From positions 1-14,218 of the forward strand of contig JASURT010000077.1 in the NCBI GenBank assembly GCA_030446435.1: a stretch of DNA of 14,218 nucleotides, read 5' to 3'. A model generated the notes under the pieces. The model saw nothing but the letters and a program-made list of their open reading frames with translations, did no database searches and was not told where the DNA came from. Shown here piece after piece: positions 1 through 8,623 of this stretch (the stretch's first letter is position 1; the number at the start of each line of letters is the position of its first letter). Made by a program: the position numbers and the translations under genes. Source of the stretch: Candidatus Ozemobacter sp. Its GTDB lineage: Bacteria; Muiribacteriota; Ozemobacteria; Ozemobacterales; Ozemobacteraceae.

Positions 1-950
1 TTGAAGTTTTGCTTCAATTTTCCGATTTCATCATCAAATAAGACCGATGTCTGTACCGAAAAATCGCCTTCGGCAAGCTTGCTCATTTTTTCAACCAGAA
101 AATCGATCGGTTCCTGAATCGACTTGTAAAGTAACTGCATATTACCGATTAGAAACACCGCTGAAGTAGTGATAAGCATAAGTGCATTTACCTGATAATC
201 ATAAAGAACGATATAATCTTTGTAGATAAAGGCCGCAATTATTGCCATCGGTATAAGCATCAGAAAAAAAAGCATCGATAAAAGCTTGCCATAGATGCTT
301 AAAGAAGCACGCCCCGCCGATTTTTCGTTTGAATATGAAAAATAATTGCTGACATACATGAAAAGAGTCGGTTCAAGGTAAAGATAGAACAGATAGCATT
401 CAATAATCAGCCAGACCAGATGATAAATCATTGTGGAAAAGGTGAAGCCCGACTCGACACTTTGAAACAGCGTGGTTATGAACCAGATGCTGTGCGATAA
501 GAGAATGTAAGAAAATACCGCCTGGTAAAAATTATTATATCTGCGCTCAGCTTTTGCTTTAAGCTCATTTTCATTTTTACGCAGAAAAACAAGTAAAGGC
601 CGCATCCAGAAATAAAGCAGAATCAAAGCGGCAATTCTTAACCAGAATGCCAGAAAATTGCCCGAAACTCTGGTTTGCATCTTGCCGTCTTTGTTGCCAA
701 CCTCGACCTTGCCGACCGTCGAAAGTTCAATTTGCCTGGAATCAAGAATAAGCTTCTCTATTTCAGGCGAGTCTGAAGCTCCTGTTTTTCTGGCAATTTC
801 AACAGCCTTGCTGTTGTCAACCAAAAAGGCAAACAGAAAATTGTTTGCATAAATCTGTGCAAACAAAGATATAAAAAGAAAAGGCAATAATATCAACCTG
901 AAGAAGTTGGTATTTTTCATCTTCCTCAGATGAGAAGCATCCTGATCCAT
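1..950 (-). CDS. HAMP-domain membrane sensor protein, 5' partial. The N-terminal ~316 aa are present and the gene runs off the left edge.
   Basis: ATG at 950-948 with GAGGAA about 4 nt upstream. I hand-translated the reverse strand in this frame down to position 3 and found no stop. Predicted layout: a signal/TM1 (MKNTNFFRLILLPFLFISLFAQIYA), a ~70-aa extracytoplasmic segment, about 5-6 further hydrophobic helices, then a canonical HAMP linker (IQEPIDFLVEKMSKLAEGDFSVQTSVLFDDEIGKLKQNF). The output domain lies outside the window. The ORF is missing from the supplied track because it has no in-window stop. Confidence 0.6.
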   Translation of the reverse strand, partial: MDQDASHLRKMKNTNFFRLILLPFLFISLFAQIYANNFLFAFLVDNSKAVEIARKTGASDSPEIEKLILDSRQIELSTVGKVEVGNKDGKMQTRVSGNFLAFWLRIAALILLYFWMRPLLVFLRKNENELKAKAERRYNNFYQAVFSYILLSHSIWFITTLFQSVESGFTFSTMIYHLVWLIIECYLFYLYLEPTLFMYVSNYFSYSNEKSAGRASLSIYGKLLSMLFFLMLIPMAIIAAFIYKDYIVLYDYQVNALMLITTSAVFLIGNMQLLYKSIQEPIDFLVEKMSKLAEGDFSVQTSVLFDDEIGKLKQNF

Positions 951-1014: not shown

Positions 1015-1449
1015 TTAGTTGCCTTTAGCTGTTATCTGCTCTTCTGAAATTTCGCTAGTCAGTTTTGCAGCAAAACTTTCTTTTGGCCTGATAAAGAACT
1101 TTCTGGCAGCCATAAGCATTATAAAAGCGATTACGCTTAAAAGAATGTCAATCACGGTAAGGTCCGGTTTCATGGTTTTTCTGGCCACTACAAAAGCAAG
1201 TAGCTCCAAGACCGCTTCAAGATCATGCGTCAGCAGAGTTCTTATCAGCTCCAGACAGATAACCAGTAGAAGAATTCTGTTTATCAGTTCGTAAAGTGAT
1301 TCTGTAAGGCTCCAGTCGACTCCTCCCATCGAGGCAACTGAAAAATAAAAGAAAACTGCCATTCCCAACAATATGGAAATGGCAAGTATTCGTTCGCACC
1401 ACAATGTCACGCGGCGTAGAATTTCTGAAATTCTCGTCACTCTTGGCAT
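1015..1449 (-). CDS. small polytopic membrane protein, PsiE-like (phosphate-starvation-inducible E family)
   Basis: A 144-aa ORF with about 4 hydrophobic helices. Its pattern (YELINRILLLVICLELIRTLL...LLAFVVARK) recalls the E. coli PsiE core ([21 protein letters not shown]...). A GAGGAG motif lies upstream of the ATG. The family call comes from remembered similarity only. Confidence 0.45.
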   Translation of the reverse strand: MPRVTRISEILRRVTLWCERILAISILLGMAVFFYFSVASMGGVDWSLTESLYELINRILLLVICLELIRTLLTHDLEAVLELLAFVVARKTMKPDLTVIDILLSVIAFIMLMAARKFFIRPKESFAAKLTSEISEEQITAKGN

Positions 1450-1731: not shown

Positions 1732-2082
1732 ATGAGCGAAGAAAGAATCAGAAAATTCGAAGCTCGTCGCCAGGAATTGAAAAAAATGGGTGATGATGAG
1801 CTAAAACAGAGGTTCTGGGAACTCTGCAAAAAAGTTGTTGAACCCATGACCGAATACGGAAGCAAATACACCTCTCCGTCAATTGAACGCTCAGTTTTGT
1901 TGAGAATGGGAATTGACAGCCCTACTTCCCAGGGCGCGGTTGTGGCAATTAACGAAGCCGGTTTGCTTGGCAAAGGCGCCGGGCACGTCGTTTTGAAGGT
2001 TGCAAAAAACTTGAACCTTGAAATTCGTGAAGCCGCAAAAAAAATCTCTGAAGACAAAACCGTGCTTGAAGGGCTTTTTTAA
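1732..2082 (+). CDS. oraS: D-ornithine 4,5-aminomutase small subunit OraS
   Basis: 117 aa from the ATG at 1732, with AGGAA 5 nt upstream. The track's 1717 start is a TTG extension. The gene sits directly upstream of a ~734-aa B12/PLP protein, as expected for OraS. The conserved segment TSPSIERSVLLRMG and the size match OraS. Confidence 0.8.
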   Translation: MSEERIRKFEARRQELKKMGDDELKQRFWELCKKVVEPMTEYGSKYTSPSIERSVLLRMGIDSPTSQGAVVAINEAGLLGKGAGHVVLKVAKNLNLEIREAAKKISEDKTVLEGLF

Positions 2083-2098
2083 GAGAAAGGTGAGAAAT

Positions 2099-4303
2099 AT
2101 GCAGCAAAAATTAGATCCGAAAAAGAAACTTGATATAGAAGAAATTTTAGAAAATCTCGAAAATTATCATCCGCGTCGAAAAGGCTGGACATGGCGTCAG
2201 CCCGTTGAAGGCGGCTACAAGGTCGGAAAGTTTCATTTCAAGGATATGACACAGCCTTTGAAAAACTCAATCCCTCTGCCGGCTGCCAAATATTTTGACA
2301 ACATCGATCCTCAACCTAAGCCTGTAATTACCACTGAAATAGCTTCCGGAAGATTTGAAGACGATATTCGCCGTATGCGCATGGCGGCATGGCATGGCGC
2401 TGACCATATAATGGTAATTCGAACCACCGGGCAAAGCCATATCGACGGACTTTTAGAAGGCACCCCGGAAGGCGTGGGCGGTGTTCCCATAACCCGAAAA
2501 CAAATCAGAGCTTCAAGAAAAGCCTGTGATCAGATCGAAGACGAAGTCGGTCGCCCGATCAACTTTCATTCTTATGTATCAGGCGTTGCCGGCCCTGAAG
2601 TGGCGGTTCTTTTTGCCGAAGAAGGCATTAATGGCGCTCATCAGGACCCACAATACAACGTGCTTTACCGCAATGTTAACATGTATCGATCGTTCACCGA
2701 CGCCGCCAGCGCAAAAAAAGTCATGGCCGACGCCGGAATTTTTCAGATCGACGGCGCGCATAACGCAAACGCCACTGCTAAAGAAGGCTGGTCAGTCATG
2801 CCCGAACTTCTGGTTCAACATGGCATAAACTGTGCATTTTCCGAATCAGTCGGTATGCCGAAAGAGCAGATCGGTCTTTCAACAGTTCCTCCCTGTGCTC
2901 CACCTTCGCCGAAACTCTGGTATGATCTTCCATACGCCGTTGCTTTGCGCGATATTTTCAGTGAATACAAATTCAGAGCGCAGCAGAATACCAGATACAT
3001 CGAATCCGATATCGAAGAAGCCACCCGAACCCATGTTATCGATACCCTGATTTCTGCTTTGACCCATGTTGATATTCAAAGCACCATTACCCCTGATGAA
3101 GGCCGAAACGTTCCCTGGCATCATAACAATATCAGGGGCATCGAAACGGCAAAACAGACTTTGGTAGCACTCGATGGTATCAAACAGCTTATAAAGATCG
3201 ATCGTGACGGGCCTCTTGGTGAAATGGTGCGCGATCTCAAAGAACGTGCAATATGCTTTCTCGAAGAAATGGTTGAAACCGGCGGATATTTTGCCGCTGT
3301 CGAGAAGGGTTTCTTTGTAGATTCAGCAAAATATCCTGAAAGAAATGGCGACGGAATCGCCCGTGATGGAAAAGGCGGCGTCGGGGTCGGCAGCATTGTC
3401 GAAAGAGATGCCGATTATTTTGCTCCGGTTTGCAGTGTTTTCGGTCACAACAATGTTCCTGCAGGGGTCGATAAGGCCTGTGATCTTATTGACGGCTGCA
3501 CCCTTTGCAAACCCGAAAAAATCTATTATATCGATGAAATCGATGCTAGTGACAACTGTAATCTCAGACTTGAAAAGACCGTTGATTTCAGAAAAGGCGA
3601 CAAAATCAAGCCTGAAGTGGAATGGGCCGGCGATGGCACCGTTCTGATTCAGTTGTTCTTGCCCGAAGAAATCGAAGTTGCCAGAGTGGCGGCCCTTGAA
3701 GTCGCCAAAAAGATGGGTTTGTCTGAGCCTGAAGTAATCAATGCTCAGGTTATGCACCCCTCAGAAGGTACCTTCCTTGAAGTTAAGGGCAAAGTAGATT
3801 TTACTATCGATAAAAAGAGCCTGAAAATTCCGCCGAAAGAGATTCTTCTTTCTGAAGATGAAATTCGTGCCGGTATCAAAAAGGTCGGACTCAAAGTCGT
3901 CGCCGGCACAGTCGGTGAAGACGAACATTCAGTTGGTCTTCGTGAAATTCTTGATATCAAACATGGCGGCATTGAAAAATACGGCGTTAAATATCACTAC
4001 CTCGGCACTTCGGTTCCCATAGGCAAAATGGTCGATGCGGCTATCGAAACCGGGGCTCAGGCCATACTTATCAGTACAATCATCAGTCATAACGATGTTC
4101 ACCGCAAGAACATGCGCAAACTTGACGAACTTTGCCGCGAAAAAGGCATTCGCGACAAAATCATTCTTATCTGCGGCGGCACCCAGGTAACCAGAGAGAT
4201 TGCCCGGGAATGTGGCATGGATGATGGTTTCGGTCGTGGCAGCAAAGGAATTCAGGTAGTTGATTCAATCGTTAAAATACTGAAGAACCAGGGCGCTATC
4301 TAG
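2099..4303 (+). CDS. oraE: D-ornithine 4,5-aminomutase large subunit OraE (PLP- and adenosylcobalamin-dependent)
   Basis: 734 aa. The ATG at 2099 is preceded by AAGGTGAG. The track's 2018 start would overlap oraS by 65 nt and lacks an RBS. The C-terminal Rossmann-like B12-binding domain carries the DxHxxG motif (GEDEHSVG) and a downstream GG (ILICGGTQV). The small-plus-large subunit layout matches OraS/OraE rather than KamD/KamE. Confidence 0.88.
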   Translation: MQQKLDPKKKLDIEEILENLENYHPRRKGWTWRQPVEGGYKVGKFHFKDMTQPLKNSIPLPAAKYFDNIDPQPKPVITTEIASGRFEDDIRRMRMAAWHGADHIMVIRTTGQSHIDGLLEGTPEGVGGVPITRKQIRASRKACDQIEDEVGRPINFHSYVSGVAGPEVAVLFAEEGINGAHQDPQYNVLYRNVNMYRSFTDAASAKKVMADAGIFQIDGAHNANATAKEGWSVMPELLVQHGINCAFSESVGMPKEQIGLSTVPPCAPPSPKLWYDLPYAVALRDIFSEYKFRAQQNTRYIESDIEEATRTHVIDTLISALTHVDIQSTITPDEGRNVPWHHNNIRGIETAKQTLVALDGIKQLIKIDRDGPLGEMVRDLKERAICFLEEMVETGGYFAAVEKGFFVDSAKYPERNGDGIARDGKGGVGVGSIVERDADYFAPVCSVFGHNNVPAGVDKACDLIDGCTLCKPEKIYYIDEIDASDNCNLRLEKTVDFRKGDKIKPEVEWAGDGTVLIQLFLPEEIEVARVAALEVAKKMGLSEPEVINAQVMHPSEGTFLEVKGKVDFTIDKKSLKIPPKEILLSEDEIRAGIKKVGLKVVAGTVGEDEHSVGLREILDIKHGGIEKYGVKYHYLGTSVPIGKMVDAAIETGAQAILISTIISHNDVHRKNMRKLDELCREKGIRDKIILICGGTQVTREIARECGMDDGFGRGSKGIQVVDSIVKILKNQGAI

Positions 4304-4315
4304 TTCTGCAATGTG

Positions 4316-4360
4316 CATCGGCGAAGTCCCGTTTTCGGGGCCTCGCCGATGTTTCTTTTT
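4316..4360 (+). terminator. rho-independent terminator downstream of oraE
   Basis: A 9-bp perfect outer stem (catcggcga / tcgccgatg) continues into an inner cccg-tttt-cggg hairpin. It is followed by tttcttttt. Confidence 0.75.
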
Positions 4361-4487
4361 AAAGCGCATCCTGCCATATTCTCAGCTTTTCGAAGTCCTC
4401 GTGCCGGTATTTGCTGAGCATCGCTACCGAAAGACGTTTCTGGCTTTCTGAACAAACTTTGCACGAATTTTCTGTTGTTCGGCAAAG

Positions 4488-4523
4488 TTGTTATTGCTTG
4501 CGGGGTATGCTAAGATTGGCAAA
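4488..4523 (+). promoter_or_regulatory. candidate sigma70-type promoter for the glmL-like/orr-like/alr transcription unit
   Basis: TTGTTA (4488-4493), a 17-nt spacer, then TAAGAT (4511-4516), about 30 nt upstream of the ATG at 4547. Sequence pattern only. Confidence 0.35.
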
Positions 4524-4546
4524 AATTACACTATAAGGTCATTGTT

Positions 4547-5875
4547 ATGGGCGAAACACTGGATTTTCTGACTCTTGAAGTTGGCAGCACCATTACCAAA
4601 GCCAATGGTTTTATCAAAACTTCAGACAATTTTCTCAGACATGTGGCGCAGGGATTCGCGCCAACCACCGTAGACCAGGGAAATGTCGGCATCGGGCTGA
4701 AAAACGCCATCGATAATCTTGAAGAAACCAGTGGTTGCAGCACAGACAAGGCTGATATTTTTGCCAACAGCTCTGCAGCTGGTGGTTTAAGGGTAACTGT
4801 TCACGGATTGACCTACAATATGACTGCCAGGGCTGCCCGAGAAGCTAGTCTTGGCGCGGGCGCAATAATCAAAATGGTTACTGCCGGTGATCTAAGTGAA
4901 TATGACCTTGAAGAAATCGAAGAGATCGAGCCGAACATGATTGTTCTGGCCGGTGGAGTCGATTTTGGTGCCCGGGATGTGGTTTTGCAAAATGCCATAA
5001 AGATTGCTTCGTTAGATTTGCGGGTGCCGGTAGTCTACGCAGGAAACAGTGCCCTTAAACGCGGTATCGAAAACATTTTCAAAAAATCCGGTATCGAATT
5101 GATGATCGCTCCGAATGTTTTTCCCGATGTAGACGTTCTCGATGTTGAACCACTTAGAAAAAGAATGCAGGAGCTTTTTTCGCGTAATATCATTCATGCT
5201 CCGGGCATGAACAGGCTCGAAACCCTTACGACCCGACAGATTATGCCTACTCCTGGTGCGGTTTTGAAGGGTGCAGAACTCTTTGCTGAAGTTGCCGGCG
5301 ATTGTATGATCGTTGATGTTGGCGGCGCGACGACTGACGTTCACTCGGTAACCGAGGGAAGCCCCGAATTCGCTGCCAAGCTGGTTGATCCCGAGCCCAG
5401 ATGCAAAAGAACCGTTGAAGGCGATCTTGGGGTTTACGTCAATGCCTCGAATGTTCTCGAACTGGCAGAAGATGATTCCTGGCTCGATCGCCGTAATGAA
5501 GTAAAAGCAATGCCTGCTACCGATAACGAAAAAGAAGTTACCAGCTGGTTATGCCGCAAAGCGGTTGAAGTTGGAGTTCGTCGGCACGCCGGAACCATAG
5601 GCGATCTTTTCACCCCATCCGGTAAAAAGCAGATTATCAAAGGCAAAGATCTTTCTGCGGTAAAATGGGTTATTGGCACCGGGGGCGCGCTGACCCGGGT
5701 CGATGGTGGCGAAGCGATTTTGAAATCGATATGTACCGGTCCCGGCAAATCTTTATTGCCCAAGCCCGAAACCAGGATTTTTCTGGACAAAAGTTATCTT
5801 TTTTCTGCTTTGGGCACCATCGCTCTTGAATTTCCAGAGTTGGTAAAGAATACATTCAAAGAATGGATTAAATAA
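4547..5875 (+). CDS. GlmL/MutL-family accessory protein of B12-dependent mutases (putative aminomutase reactivase/chaperone)
   Basis: 442 aa. The N-terminal LDFLTLEVGSTITKANGF fits the GlmL (glutamate mutase L) consensus LxxDxGSTxTK. The size matches GlmL (~460 aa). It is placed next to the B12 aminomutase genes. Confidence 0.65.
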   Translation: MGETLDFLTLEVGSTITKANGFIKTSDNFLRHVAQGFAPTTVDQGNVGIGLKNAIDNLEETSGCSTDKADIFANSSAAGGLRVTVHGLTYNMTARAAREASLGAGAIIKMVTAGDLSEYDLEEIEEIEPNMIVLAGGVDFGARDVVLQNAIKIASLDLRVPVVYAGNSALKRGIENIFKKSGIELMIAPNVFPDVDVLDVEPLRKRMQELFSRNIIHAPGMNRLETLTTRQIMPTPGAVLKGAELFAEVAGDCMIVDVGGATTDVHSVTEGSPEFAAKLVDPEPRCKRTVEGDLGVYVNASNVLELAEDDSWLDRRNEVKAMPATDNEKEVTSWLCRKAVEVGVRRHAGTIGDLFTPSGKKQIIKGKDLSAVKWVIGTGGALTRVDGGEAILKSICTGPGKSLLPKPETRIFLDKSYLFSALGTIALEFPELVKNTFKEWIK

Positions 5876-5876
5876 A

Positions 5877-6986
5877 ATGATTGATTATAAAGATCAACAG
5901 ACAAAAAGATGCAAAACCCCCAGGTTAGAAATATACCCCGACAGAATTCGTCAGAATGCTGAGGCAATCGTTTCTCAGTGTCATAATGAAGGGGTCAGGG
6001 TGGCTTGTGTAACCAAGGTTACTTCTGCTCATCCGGCTGTGGCGCGTGCCATGACCGAAGGCGGAGCAGACCTGCTTGCCGATTCGCGCCTGGAAAATCT
6101 CTGGAAGTTACGCCAGGCTGGTTTGCGCGGTCCATTCCTGCTTTTGCGACTTCCGGCGCTGTCGCAGATCGATGAAGTCGTTGATGTGGCTGATTATAGC
6201 TTGAATTCAAGTCTGGTAACTATTAAGGCTCTTTCTGAAGCAGCTCTAAAGCGAAATTTGCGCCATAAGGTCATTGTAATGATCGATGTAGGCGATCTTC
6301 GCGAAGGAGTTTGGCCAGACAAGGCCATTGAACTGGTAAACAGTGCTGCAAGCCTTAAAGGCGTCGAAATTGTCGGCCTTGGTTGCAACCTTGCCTGTTA
6401 TGGCGGGGTTATTCCGTCTGAAATTAACATGAAGTTGTTCGTCGACACGGTTAAAGCCTGCCGAAAGGCAACCGGTCTTAAATTGCCCATACTCTGCGGC
6501 GGCAACAGCTCGGGTTTACCTCTGATGGCCGCCGGCAAACTTCCGACCGAAGTAAATCTTTACCGCATCGGTGAAGCCATTATTCTGGGGCGAAACGTTA
6601 TTGACCGATCACCATGGCAGGGGACCAGACAAGATACGGTTCTGGCCGTCGGTGAAGTTATCGAAGCAGAAACAAAGCCATCGATGCCGATTGGCGAGCG
6701 CGGTCAGGATGCTTTTGGTGAAACCCAGGAATTCGTCGACCGGGGCTTGAGAAAAAGAGTGATACTCAATCTTGGCCGTCAGGATATTGTGGTTGACGGT
6801 ATTACCCCGGTTGAAGACGGAATCATCGTTCTGGGAGGTTCGAGCGATCACCTTCTGCTTGATGTTCAAGATTGCCGCAGAGATTTGAAGGTCGGTGATG
6901 AAGTGGCGTTTTACCCGGGTTATGGTGCTTTGCTGGCTTTGTCGACTTCAGAATATGTTCAGAAAGTGGTAATAGAGGCAGAGTAA
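5877..6986 (+). CDS. PLP-dependent amino-acid racemase of the alanine-racemase fold, candidate ornithine racemase (Orr-like)
   Basis: 369 aa. The ATG sits 1 nt after the preceding stop (TAAaATG). The N-terminal TIM-barrel lysine context (VACVTKVTSAHPAVA) and the ADSRLENL segment are as recalled for the Orr / 'AR-like 1' family. It is not a canonical Alr because it lacks the AVVKANAYGHG motif. The substrate is inferred from operon context. Confidence 0.6.
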   Translation: MIDYKDQQTKRCKTPRLEIYPDRIRQNAEAIVSQCHNEGVRVACVTKVTSAHPAVARAMTEGGADLLADSRLENLWKLRQAGLRGPFLLLRLPALSQIDEVVDVADYSLNSSLVTIKALSEAALKRNLRHKVIVMIDVGDLREGVWPDKAIELVNSAASLKGVEIVGLGCNLACYGGVIPSEINMKLFVDTVKACRKATGLKLPILCGGNSSGLPLMAAGKLPTEVNLYRIGEAIILGRNVIDRSPWQGTRQDTVLAVGEVIEAETKPSMPIGERGQDAFGETQEFVDRGLRKRVILNLGRQDIVVDGITPVEDGIIVLGGSSDHLLLDVQDCRRDLKVGDEVAFYPGYGALLALSTSEYVQKVVIEAE

Positions 6987-6987
6987 A

Positions 6988-8112
6988 ATGCTATATCAGA
7001 CACATGCGCAGGTTCACCTGCAAAACATAAAATTCAATATCGAAAATATCAGAAAGGCGATTGGCCCTGAACGAAAAATTCTCATCGCGGTTAAGGCCAA
7101 TGCTTACGGCCACGGCGCGGTCGAAGTCTCGCAGATGGCTGAAAAATCAGGGGTCGACTGGCTGGGTGTTGCCACGGTTCCCGAGGGAATGCAACTGAGG
7201 CAGGCCGGAATCAAATTGCCGATTCTTAAATTCAGTCCCGCTTTTCCAGAAGAAATGGAAGAAGCCGTAAAAAATGATCTTACAATGGCTGTTATTTCTG
7301 CTGAAAACGTAAGAGCTCTTGAAAACACTGCGGCAAAGCTTGATAAGACCGTAAACGTGCATCTTAAAATCGAGACCGGCATGGGCCGAATTGGTGTAAA
7401 TGCCGATGAAGCAATTGCGCTGGCCGAAGAAATCATAAAAAACTGCCCTCATCTGCATCTGCAGGGTGCGATGACTCATCTTCCCGTCAGTGATGAAGCC
7501 AGCAAAACCTTTACCAGTCGTCAGATAGACCGATTCAAAAAGCATGTGAAAAGCATTGAAGAAACGCTTAACTTTAAATTCGAGCTTGTTCACTGCGCCA
7601 ACTCAGGTGCCGTGCTCGCGCACCCTGATGGATGGCTTGACATGGTAAGACCCGGTATCATGATTTATGGTTTTTACCCTTCAAAAGATACCCCGCAAAC
7701 GATCGAACTAAAGCCCGGGTTGAGTTTTAAAACCAGAGTTTCTTTTATTAAAAAGGTTTCTAAAGGCTCGTCGATAGGTTATGGTCGAACCTGGATCGCG
7801 CCTGAAGATACCTGGATAGCTACTTTTCCGGCTGGTTATGCAGATGGTTTCAATCGCCTTTTTTCAAATGAGGGCAGAGTGTTGATTGCAGGCAAATCTT
7901 ACCCGGTTGTTGGCCGCGTCTGCATGGACCAGAGTATGTGCAATCTCGGGCCAGAAACCGATATAAAGATTGGTGACATGGTTACTTTGATCGGTACGGA
8001 TAAAGAAGAAACAATTAGTGCTTACGAATGGGCCGAAAAGCTTGATACAATAACCTACGAAGTTACCTGTCAGATAAATGGGCGGGTGAAACGTTATTTC
8101 GACCCGTATTGA
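6988..8112 (+). CDS. alr: alanine racemase
   Basis: 374 aa. The canonical PLP-lysine motif AVKANAYGHG is near the N-terminus and the C-terminal GRVCMDQ tyrosine-region motif is present. The ATG is 1 nt after the upstream stop, with AGAGG upstream. Confidence 0.85.
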   Translation: MLYQTHAQVHLQNIKFNIENIRKAIGPERKILIAVKANAYGHGAVEVSQMAEKSGVDWLGVATVPEGMQLRQAGIKLPILKFSPAFPEEMEEAVKNDLTMAVISAENVRALENTAAKLDKTVNVHLKIETGMGRIGVNADEAIALAEEIIKNCPHLHLQGAMTHLPVSDEASKTFTSRQIDRFKKHVKSIEETLNFKFELVHCANSGAVLAHPDGWLDMVRPGIMIYGFYPSKDTPQTIELKPGLSFKTRVSFIKKVSKGSSIGYGRTWIAPEDTWIATFPAGYADGFNRLFSNEGRVLIAGKSYPVVGRVCMDQSMCNLGPETDIKIGDMVTLIGTDKEETISAYEWAEKLDTITYEVTCQINGRVKRYFDPY

Positions 8113-8191: not shown

Positions 8192-8623
8192 ATGGCAGTA
8201 AAAACAGTATCTACAGAAATAATTGACGAAATCCTTCAAACTCTGGGCCTGAAAAAGTTTTCAAGGCCTTATGCGGCTATGATCGACCCGGGTGATTTTG
8301 GCACCGTAGCAACCTATATTCCGTTGTTTCCGGATGAATATAAAAAATTGCCCCCGAATCTTCAGGCTCACGTTTATCTTGTCGCACCCGGACAATATGG
8401 GTTGATATGTTTTTTGCCCAGAACTTTCGAATCGCCCGATGGTGGCAAGCCAACTGAAGTTTCGACTACACATGATGTCTGGGGAAAAATGGTTCGTGTG
8501 GCTTATAAAACCGATCGTGGTGGAGAATTTGAAACCGAGCACAGTATTAGAAGAGACAGACTGCTGCTCTACGCCAAAAAGAAGAAACTGCCGATAAGCA
8601 ATTCGGTAAAAATTTCTTCCTAA
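8192..8623 (+). CDS. hypothetical protein (143 aa), likely co-transcribed with the downstream beta-CASP nuclease
   Basis: An intact ORF with no recognisable motif. It has a Lys-rich C-terminus (YAKKKKLPISNSVKISS). It ends 18 nt before the next gene's ATG. It has a weak RBS. Confidence 0.45.
   Translation: MAVKTVSTEIIDEILQTLGLKKFSRPYAAMIDPGDFGTVATYIPLFPDEYKKLPPNLQAHVYLVAPGQYGLICFLPRTFESPDGGKPTEVSTTHDVWGKMVRVAYKTDRGGEFETEHSIRRDRLLLYAKKKKLPISNSVKISS

Follow-up and report, generated by a model that had tools for sequence, protein, structure and literature searches.

Five genes around a D-ornithine aminomutase in an uncultured Riflebacteria-type bacterium are probably the distal half of a split L-ornithine degradation cluster

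Introduction

The 14,218-nucleotide stretch of DNA analysed here (the window; contig JASURT010000077.1 of assembly GCA_030446435.1, Candidatus Ozemobacter sp.) encodes the two subunits of a D-ornithine 4,5-aminomutase, OraS and OraE, followed by a GlmL-type protein (Or-4), an ornithine racemase-like protein (Orr) and an alanine racemase (Alr). The locus raises the question of what such an aminomutase does where ord, ortA and ortB are not at hand, and an earlier note on this DNA had left the matter between a pathway split across the genome and an aminomutase used in a different context.

The cluster for oxidative L-ornithine degradation was reportedly described by Fonknechten et al. 2009, and the presence of both OraS and OraE places the window among clusters of this type. 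In Clostridium (Acetoanaerobium) sticklandii and Clostridioides difficile the cluster comprises orr, oraS, oraE, or-4, ord, ortA and ortB (PMC13397332; PMC8803604).

With a probability that we put at roughly 85%, the five window genes are the distal part of a Stickland-type oxidative L-ornithine cluster from an uncultured member of the Riflebacteria, in which the pathway is complete, ord-ortAB lie upstream on the same strand, the cluster has been split by insertion at the junction of ortB and oraS, and the distal half is organised as two units. The apparent anomaly is thereby removed, as the aminomutase has its partner genes and is no orphan, and a complete, ATP-yielding ornithine fermentation pathway would be encoded in this organism.

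Location of ord, ortA and ortB

No ord, ortA or ortB gene was found in the window, in a further 3.3 kb upstream or in 6 kb downstream, the latter two covered by contigs of the same organism that include L001, and the pathway genes do not form one contiguous cluster. All three genes were located in the same two NCBI metagenome-assembled genomes (MAGs) that carry the window genes, not contiguous with oraS, so that the earlier statement that they are missing holds for the window and its surroundings and not for the organism. The OrtB protein (P0144; MDN5279229.1 and MDN5282121.1), which NCBI names '2-amino-4-ketopentanoate thiolase beta subunit [Clostridiales bacterium]', stands exactly 229 protein accessions ahead of OraS (MDN5279458.1 and MDN5282350.1) in both MAGs. 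On contig L113, Ord, OrtA and OrtB score 538, 121 and 809 bits, all above their NCBIfam equivalog cut-offs (400, 70 and 550), and the contigs with P0144 have six samples in common with the contigs that carry the window Orr (JGI 3300042272, 3300042274, 3300042276 and 3300042259; Logan SRR28720267 and SRR35174904).

The protein search that returned P0144, for which the query was the OrtB of a Riflebacteria-labelled ortAB locus without nearby oraSE, also returned P0163, an OrtB encoded on the same contig as oraSE-or4-orr-alr in a sister genome. This sister MAG (GCA_054681895.1, Rifleibacteriota) has a 112-kb contig on which ord-ortA-ortB occupy about 66.4-69.1 kb. On that contig oraS follows on the same strand at about 87.1 kb, which puts ord-ortAB 18 kb upstream, and none of the eleven genes called between ortB and oraS matches an ornithine-pathway family. 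The contig is syntenic with every window gene from a HAMP-cyclase to a pseudouridine synthase, bar a 183-amino-acid (aa) open reading frame of the window for which no counterpart was called there. From the window organism, the ord-ortAB contigs L113 and L114 are colinear with the sister contig from ord through a DUF2339 gene, the order 3' of ortB (Cofac_haem_bdg, RRM, 625-aa, 122-aa, DUF2339) being that of the sister ortB-to-oraS interval, and the oraS contig L001 is colinear with it from the HAMP-cyclase onward. Identity to the sister proteins is 88% for OrtB and 78-90% for the window genes.

Several points weigh against our reading. By blastn the ord-ortAB contigs (L113-L122) have no stretch in common with the oraS contigs (L001-L010 and the window), the sister genome is about 79-90% identical in protein, which makes the inference of a distance indirect, the membership of ord-ortAB in the MAGs rests on binning, though two MAGs concur, and Or-4 and Orr of the window score below their curated NCBIfam cut-offs, as their orthologues in intact clusters likewise do. 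The two contig sets being without overlap, the distance from ord-ortAB to oraS must here be 13.4 kb or more, and it would be about 18 kb if the sister is taken as a guide; in the window genome we would thus place ord-ortAB on the strand of oraS, about 14-18 kb upstream.

We consider it very improbable that the ord-ortAB contigs belong to a co-occurring congener and reached the MAGs by a binning artefact. The same JGI series contains at least one further congener that has ord-ortAB of its own, next to glycine-cleavage genes, which would fit such an artefact, as would the lack of physical overlap, yet two independent MAGs show the same offset between P0144 and OraS, the samples are shared, the genes 3' of ortB stand exactly in the sister order and the identity of OrtB to the sister falls within the range of the window genes. 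The OrtB of that other congener, P0159, resembles the sister OrtB most of all and comes from this JGI series, which gave it initial appeal as the window organism's copy. It was rejected for its different context beside glycine-cleavage genes, and of its five samples just one is among the ten listed for the window Orr. In a congener of this series (L108-L110), ord-ortA-ortB lie beside an opposite-strand block of genes for glycine cleavage, serine hydroxymethyltransferase and formate-tetrahydrofolate ligase.

The same results bear on the proposal that the aminomutase works in another context, where Ord and OrtAB would be lacking and OraSE and Orr would make 2,4-diaminopentanoate or D-ornithine for some other purpose. 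The empty 3.3 kb upstream and the window itself would agree with it, as would the existence of Riflebacteria that have oraSE without other pathway genes nearby. Given that ord-ortA-ortB pass their equivalog cut-offs and occur in both MAGs and in six of the samples that hold the window genes, and with both halves on one syntenic sister contig, we find this proposal hardly credible. The alternative in the earlier note, a split pathway, is the one that stands, the split being local.

Directly after ortB, L113 (10520-11638) encodes a 372-aa protein with B12-binding_2 and B12-binding domains, which adjoins genes of an adenosylcobalamin (AdoCbl)-dependent pathway and has no counterpart at this place in the sister MAG. 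The protein is similar to the half of CarH that senses cobalamin (63.6 bits, cut-off 400), and its N-terminal part of about 120 residues matched no family or helix-turn-helix model.

Break-up of the cluster in related genomes

The closest relatives of the window OraE, at 85-92% identity, come from Candidatus Riflebacteria, Rifleibacteriota and Ozemobacter MAGs. Among these lineages, Ca. Ozemobacter sibiricus and two other Riflebacteria carry an intact cluster, ord-ortA-ortB-oraS-oraE-or4-orr-alr, which in two of the three is followed by tldD/pmbA and then by a pair of genes for a 145-aa protein and a beta-CASP protein. Intact eight-gene clusters also occur in Anaerolineae, Holophagae/Thermoanaerobaculia, Spirochaetota, Mobilicoccus and Myxococcota (with that of Ca. 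O. sibiricus: L012, L015, L019, L036, L086-L088, L093 and others). The gene order and the coupling of orr to alr are the same there as in the window, whose proteins are 53-86% identical to theirs, whereas the eight genes that are contiguous in those clusters have their first three displaced upstream in the window lineage.

A third relative, on a 336,531-bp ENA contig (ctg97073l; OraE 88% identical), has a gap of just 5.8 kb between ortB and oraS, and the last inserted gene, directly 5' of oraS, encodes an IS110-family transposase (L123 8440-9465). The junction of ortB and oraS thus presents a graded series, from the intact eight genes in Ozemobacter through a 5.8-kb insert that ends in IS110 to about 18 kb of unrelated genes in the sister, and the transposase suggests how the junction was opened. 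The pathway is split locally by insertion at one junction and is not truncated. In the history that we propose, an ancestral contiguous ord-ortA-ortB-oraS-oraE-or4-orr-alr cluster would have been broken at this junction by unrelated inserted genes, and the three arrangements would be successive stages of its break-up, an IS110 transposase marking one of them.

A search of GTDB species representatives with the Ozemobacter OrtB returned 80 loci. By tblastn, at least 11 of these, from Riflebacteria-labelled genomes, lack oraSE within 10 kb of their ortAB genes, whether or not ord is present too. Furthermore, two Riflebacteria from biogas reactors (L094 and L099) have oraS-oraE alone, with no or-4, orr or alr within 10 kb, indicating that fragmentation of the cluster in Riflebacteria takes several forms. 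These observations place the known Fonknechten-type cluster in a new phylum, Riflebacteria, with a lineage-specific split. Both NCBI MAGs with the window proteins bear the label 'Clostridiales bacterium', which is probably wrong given the synteny and the best protein matches to Rifleibacteriota and Ozemobacteraceae.

Identity of the window genes and the predicted pathway

Profile scores (Table 1) confirmed the five genes, all on the + strand, as the earlier note had read them, and the NCBI names of the window genes are already correct ('D-ornithine 4,5-aminomutase subunit alpha' for OraS, MDN5279458.1; 'ornithine racemase' for Orr). OraE has the Pfam domains Lys-AminoMut_A, OAM_dimer and B12-binding. 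The gene next to oraE is the GlmL-related or-4, as expected of a member of the cluster; its product scores 538 bits on NF040744 ('GlmL-related ornithine degradation protein'), under the cut-off of 600, as do its orthologues within intact clusters (529-544 bits), and passes the subfamily model TIGR01319 (259, cut-off 204). The presumed role of Or-4 is that of a chaperone or reactivase acting on the B12 mutase.

In 40 clusters, the product of the gene at the orr position shares 55-79% identity with the window Orr. All 40 residues aligned to its pyridoxal phosphate (PLP) lysine, Lys47, are the same, all 41 sequences have Cys174, which lies in the motif NLAC[Y/F]GG, and a Pfam search found no Ala_racemase_C domain, so that Orr has the lysine together with a cysteine in place of the catalytic tyrosine of alanine racemases (AlaR). 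A Lys/Cys acid-base pair defines ornithine racemases, the Salmonella enzyme having Lys-36 and Cys-164, with the cysteine usually followed by tyrosine (Phillips et al. 2025, PMC13397332). The Salmonella OrnR (STM2358), of the biosynthetic clade, and the window Orr are both fold-III PLP racemases with this pair; compared by published description, the Lys-to-Cys spacing is 128 residues there and 127 here, with Cys then Tyr (PMC13397332). The two differ in setting, a decarboxylase/transporter operon for STM2358 and a catabolic aminomutase cluster for Orr, and the biosynthetic and catabolic clades are about 40% identical (PMC13397332).

The match of Orr to NF040742 covers the full length of the model and stays under its curated cut-off. 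Scores of 390-406 bits on this model were also obtained for the sister Orr and for the Orr proteins of seven intact eight-gene clusters, which come from several phyla, so the cut-off appears to exclude the whole non-Firmicute clade, and the scores of Orr and Or-4 together suggest that the curated cut-offs of both models miss it. A substrate other than ornithine, such as lysine, arginine or a broad range of amino acids, could be argued for the 369-aa racemase from its low score and from the overlapping specificities of fold-III racemases (PMC13397332). Against this stand the full-length match, the equal scores of Orr proteins inside intact ornithine clusters, the Lys/Cys pair with no AlaR-type C-terminal domain and the place of the gene at the orr position, as in more than 40 clusters, and we regard another substrate as quite improbable. 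Judged by these features, orr is a catabolic-clade ornithine racemase gene, with a predicted L-ornithine to D-ornithine activity.

In the pathway that we propose, Orr would convert L-ornithine to D-ornithine, from which OraS/OraE, with AdoCbl and PLP and aided by the GlmL-like Or-4, would make 2,4-diaminopentanoate. Ord would then yield 2-amino-4-oxopentanoate and NH3, OrtAB with CoA would cleave this product to acetyl-CoA and D-alanine, and Alr would turn D-alanine into L-alanine for further catabolism.

In comparison with the clusters of C. sticklandii and C. difficile, the same seven gene families are found here, with OraE, Ord, OrtA and OrtB above equivalog cut-offs, and the predicted sequence of reactions is the same, with acetyl-CoA and D-alanine as its end products. 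In contrast to those clusters, the host is an uncultured Riflebacteria-type bacterium and not a Firmicute, the cluster is split from ortB to oraS by about 14-18 kb of unrelated genes as estimated through the sister, alr is translationally coupled to orr, and the clade of Orr and Or-4 is a divergent one outside the Firmicutes, with scores under the NCBIfam cut-offs.

The alanine racemase and its pairing with orr

Apart from its equivalog score and its two domains (Table 1), Alr has all its best PDB matches among alanine racemases (4y2w, E = 1e-85) and, in the alignment to 4y2w, has the catalytic lysine motif AVKANAYGHG and the tyrosine motif PAGYADG. By score, domains and motifs, the window alr reads as an ordinary alanine racemase gene.

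The adjacency of orr and alr is not peculiar to this locus and proved to be widespread. There were 44 species-representative loci with Orr, 42 of them with enough downstream sequence, and in 31 of these 42 informative ornithine clusters, from several phyla, alr is the next gene after orr on the same strand. In 19 of 29 loci, orr and alr are -4 to +20 nt apart. Clusters with orr-alr span Anaerolineae, Acidobacteriota, Spirochaetota, Actinomycetes, Myxococcota and Riflebacteria, and include intact eight-gene clusters. Identity of their Alr to that of the window is 53-84% (median 65%) and correlates with the identity of OraE (rho 0.53) and of Or-4 (rho 0.68), which suggests that alr has been co-inherited with the cluster.

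The reaction of EC 2.3.1.263 yields D-alanine, and this fits the logic of an entry racemase (Orr) and an exit racemase (Alr) that the earlier note had put forward. D-alanine is the stated product of the ornithine pathway and of OrtAB (PMC13397332; PMC3091704). Since OrtAB would release D-alanine, the reading of alr as an exit racemase is reasonable and the one that we favour. On balance we lean towards alr being an integral, co-inherited eighth gene of the non-Firmicute cluster, which would provide a dedicated exit from D-alanine to L-alanine coupled to the entry racemase, with or4-orr-alr transcribed apart from oraSE. A point on the other side is that alr, if it were the sole alr of the genome, would also be its housekeeping enzyme.

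Alternatively, alr could be nothing but a housekeeping alanine racemase gene, making D-alanine from L-alanine for peptidoglycan, that came to lie beside orr by chance and has no dedicated catabolic role. Alr is indeed canonical by every test, 11 of the 42 clusters have no adjacent alr, and the classical description of the pathway does without it (PMC8803604). A chance neighbour is nevertheless hard to reconcile with adjacency in 31 of 42 clusters over several phyla, usually with overlapping or nearly overlapping stop and start, with Alr proteins whose 53-84% identity tracks that of the other cluster genes and points to co-inheritance, and with D-alanine from OrtAB as an obvious substrate; we therefore think this alternative unlikely.

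No link of alr to an ornithine cluster was found in the searchable literature, a search that did not extend to Fonknechten et al. 2009, and the coupling of orr to alr is the only feature of the locus not found there. As alr follows orr in most non-Firmicute ornithine clusters, the textbook pathway might be extended by a dedicated step of D-alanine racemisation.

Transcription units and the oraE/or-4 spacer

The earlier note had described one translationally coupled unit at this locus. This is borne out for or-4, orr and alr, whose two junctions both read TAA-A-ATG and so leave one base between stop and start, and does not extend to all five genes, since a 243-nt spacer with a hairpin separates oraE from or-4. 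Translational coupling thus appears to be confined to or4-orr-alr.

The hairpin (Table 1), followed by the U-run UUUCUUUUU, was found by folding; a simple terminator scan did not list it, because of an interior mismatch. Positions 4316-4360 fold as RNA with a free energy of -32.5 kcal/mol (z = -5.06), and none of 200 shuffled sequences was equally stable. The sister MAG has a different hairpin at the same position after oraE. The hairpin probably ends or attenuates the oraSE transcript, and together with the 243-nt gap it makes the five genes look like two units, oraSE and or4-orr-alr.

In the alignment of this spacer with that of the sister MAG (67% identity), TGCTAAGATTGG lies within the longest identical run, of 17 nt, which is the sole long conserved block. 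The block is absent from the listing of a promoter consensus scan, and we propose it, from its conservation and position, as a candidate promoter element of or-4/orr/alr. Rfam gave no match across the whole window at E <= 1, and thus no riboswitch that would account for the leader of oraS or for the gap between oraE and or-4.

Flanking genes

Table 1. Coordinates and assignments of the features discussed, numbered from the first letter of the window.
Feature	Position	Strand	Assignment
HAMP + class-III adenylate/guanylate cyclase sensor	1-950	-	N-terminal (membrane/HAMP) part; full gene on L001 936-2564
Small membrane protein	1015-1449	-	144 aa; no supported family assignment
oraS	1732-2082	+	116 aa; PF16552 (OAM_alpha) 131.7 bits; D-ornithine 4,5-aminomutase small subunit
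oraE	2099-4303	+	734 aa; NCBIfam NF040743 equivalog 1341 bits, cut-off 800; aminomutase large AdoCbl/PLP-binding subunit
Intrinsic-terminator-like hairpin + U-run	4316-4351 (hairpin), 4352-4360 (U-run)	+	begins 13 nt past the oraE stop
Conserved block TGCTAAGATTGG	4508-4519	+	ends 27 nt 5' of the or-4 start; candidate extended -10 element for or-4/orr/alr
or-4	4547-5875	+	442 aa; GlmL/MutL family, PF13941 481.9 bits
orr	5877-6986	+	369 aa; fold-III PLP racemase; NF040742 'ornithine racemase Orr' 398 bits, cut-off 480
alr	6988-8112	+	374 aa; TIGR00492 equivalog 378 bits, cut-off 168; PF01168 + PF00842
143-aa protein	8192-8623	+	no known family matched
Beta-CASP metallo-beta-lactamase nuclease	8642-10237	+	531 aa; Pfam Beta-Casp and RMMBL
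Major vault protein-like bacterial protein	10390-11784	-	464 aa

The gene at the 5' edge of the window codes for the N-terminal portion of a HAMP/class-III nucleotide cyclase and bears out the unrelated sensor seen upstream by the earlier note; its full-length form on L001, a contig of the same organism, has PF00672 (HAMP) and PF00211 (Guanylate_cyc), and an orthologue stands at the same place in the sister MAG (L011 7296-8936). It is part of the DNA that now parts ortB from oraS and not a pathway gene. The 144-aa membrane protein, which likewise has an orthologue at the same place in the sister MAG (L011 9012-9416), had been called PsiE-like, an identity that we rejected as the match to Pfam PsiE reaches just 11.4 bits (cut-off 23.9; E = 0.36).

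On the 3' side, the pair of genes for the 143-aa and beta-CASP proteins recurs, as a 143/145-aa + beta-CASP pair, beyond the 3' end of the sister cluster (L011). The intact Ozemobacter-type clusters L012 and L098 have the pair as well, following tldD/pmbA. By this synteny we take the pair as a sign of where the ornithine cluster formerly ended on its 3' side; it is probably outside the pathway. A CRISPR-related role for the beta-CASP protein was considered and rejected, as its best NCBIfam match, 'Cas14 type VII', reaches 378 bits, far under the cut-off of 800.

Further downstream, the protein that resembles the major vault protein (MVP) of eukaryotes matches the Pfam models Vault_3 repeat (39.6 bits), MVP_shoulder (27.6) and SPFH/Band_7 (40.7). 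Its sole sequence matches in PDB are MVP chains, at E of about 1e-6, with residues 66-397 aligned to MVP 358-705, and the gene is kept in the sister MAG (L011 18398-19795).

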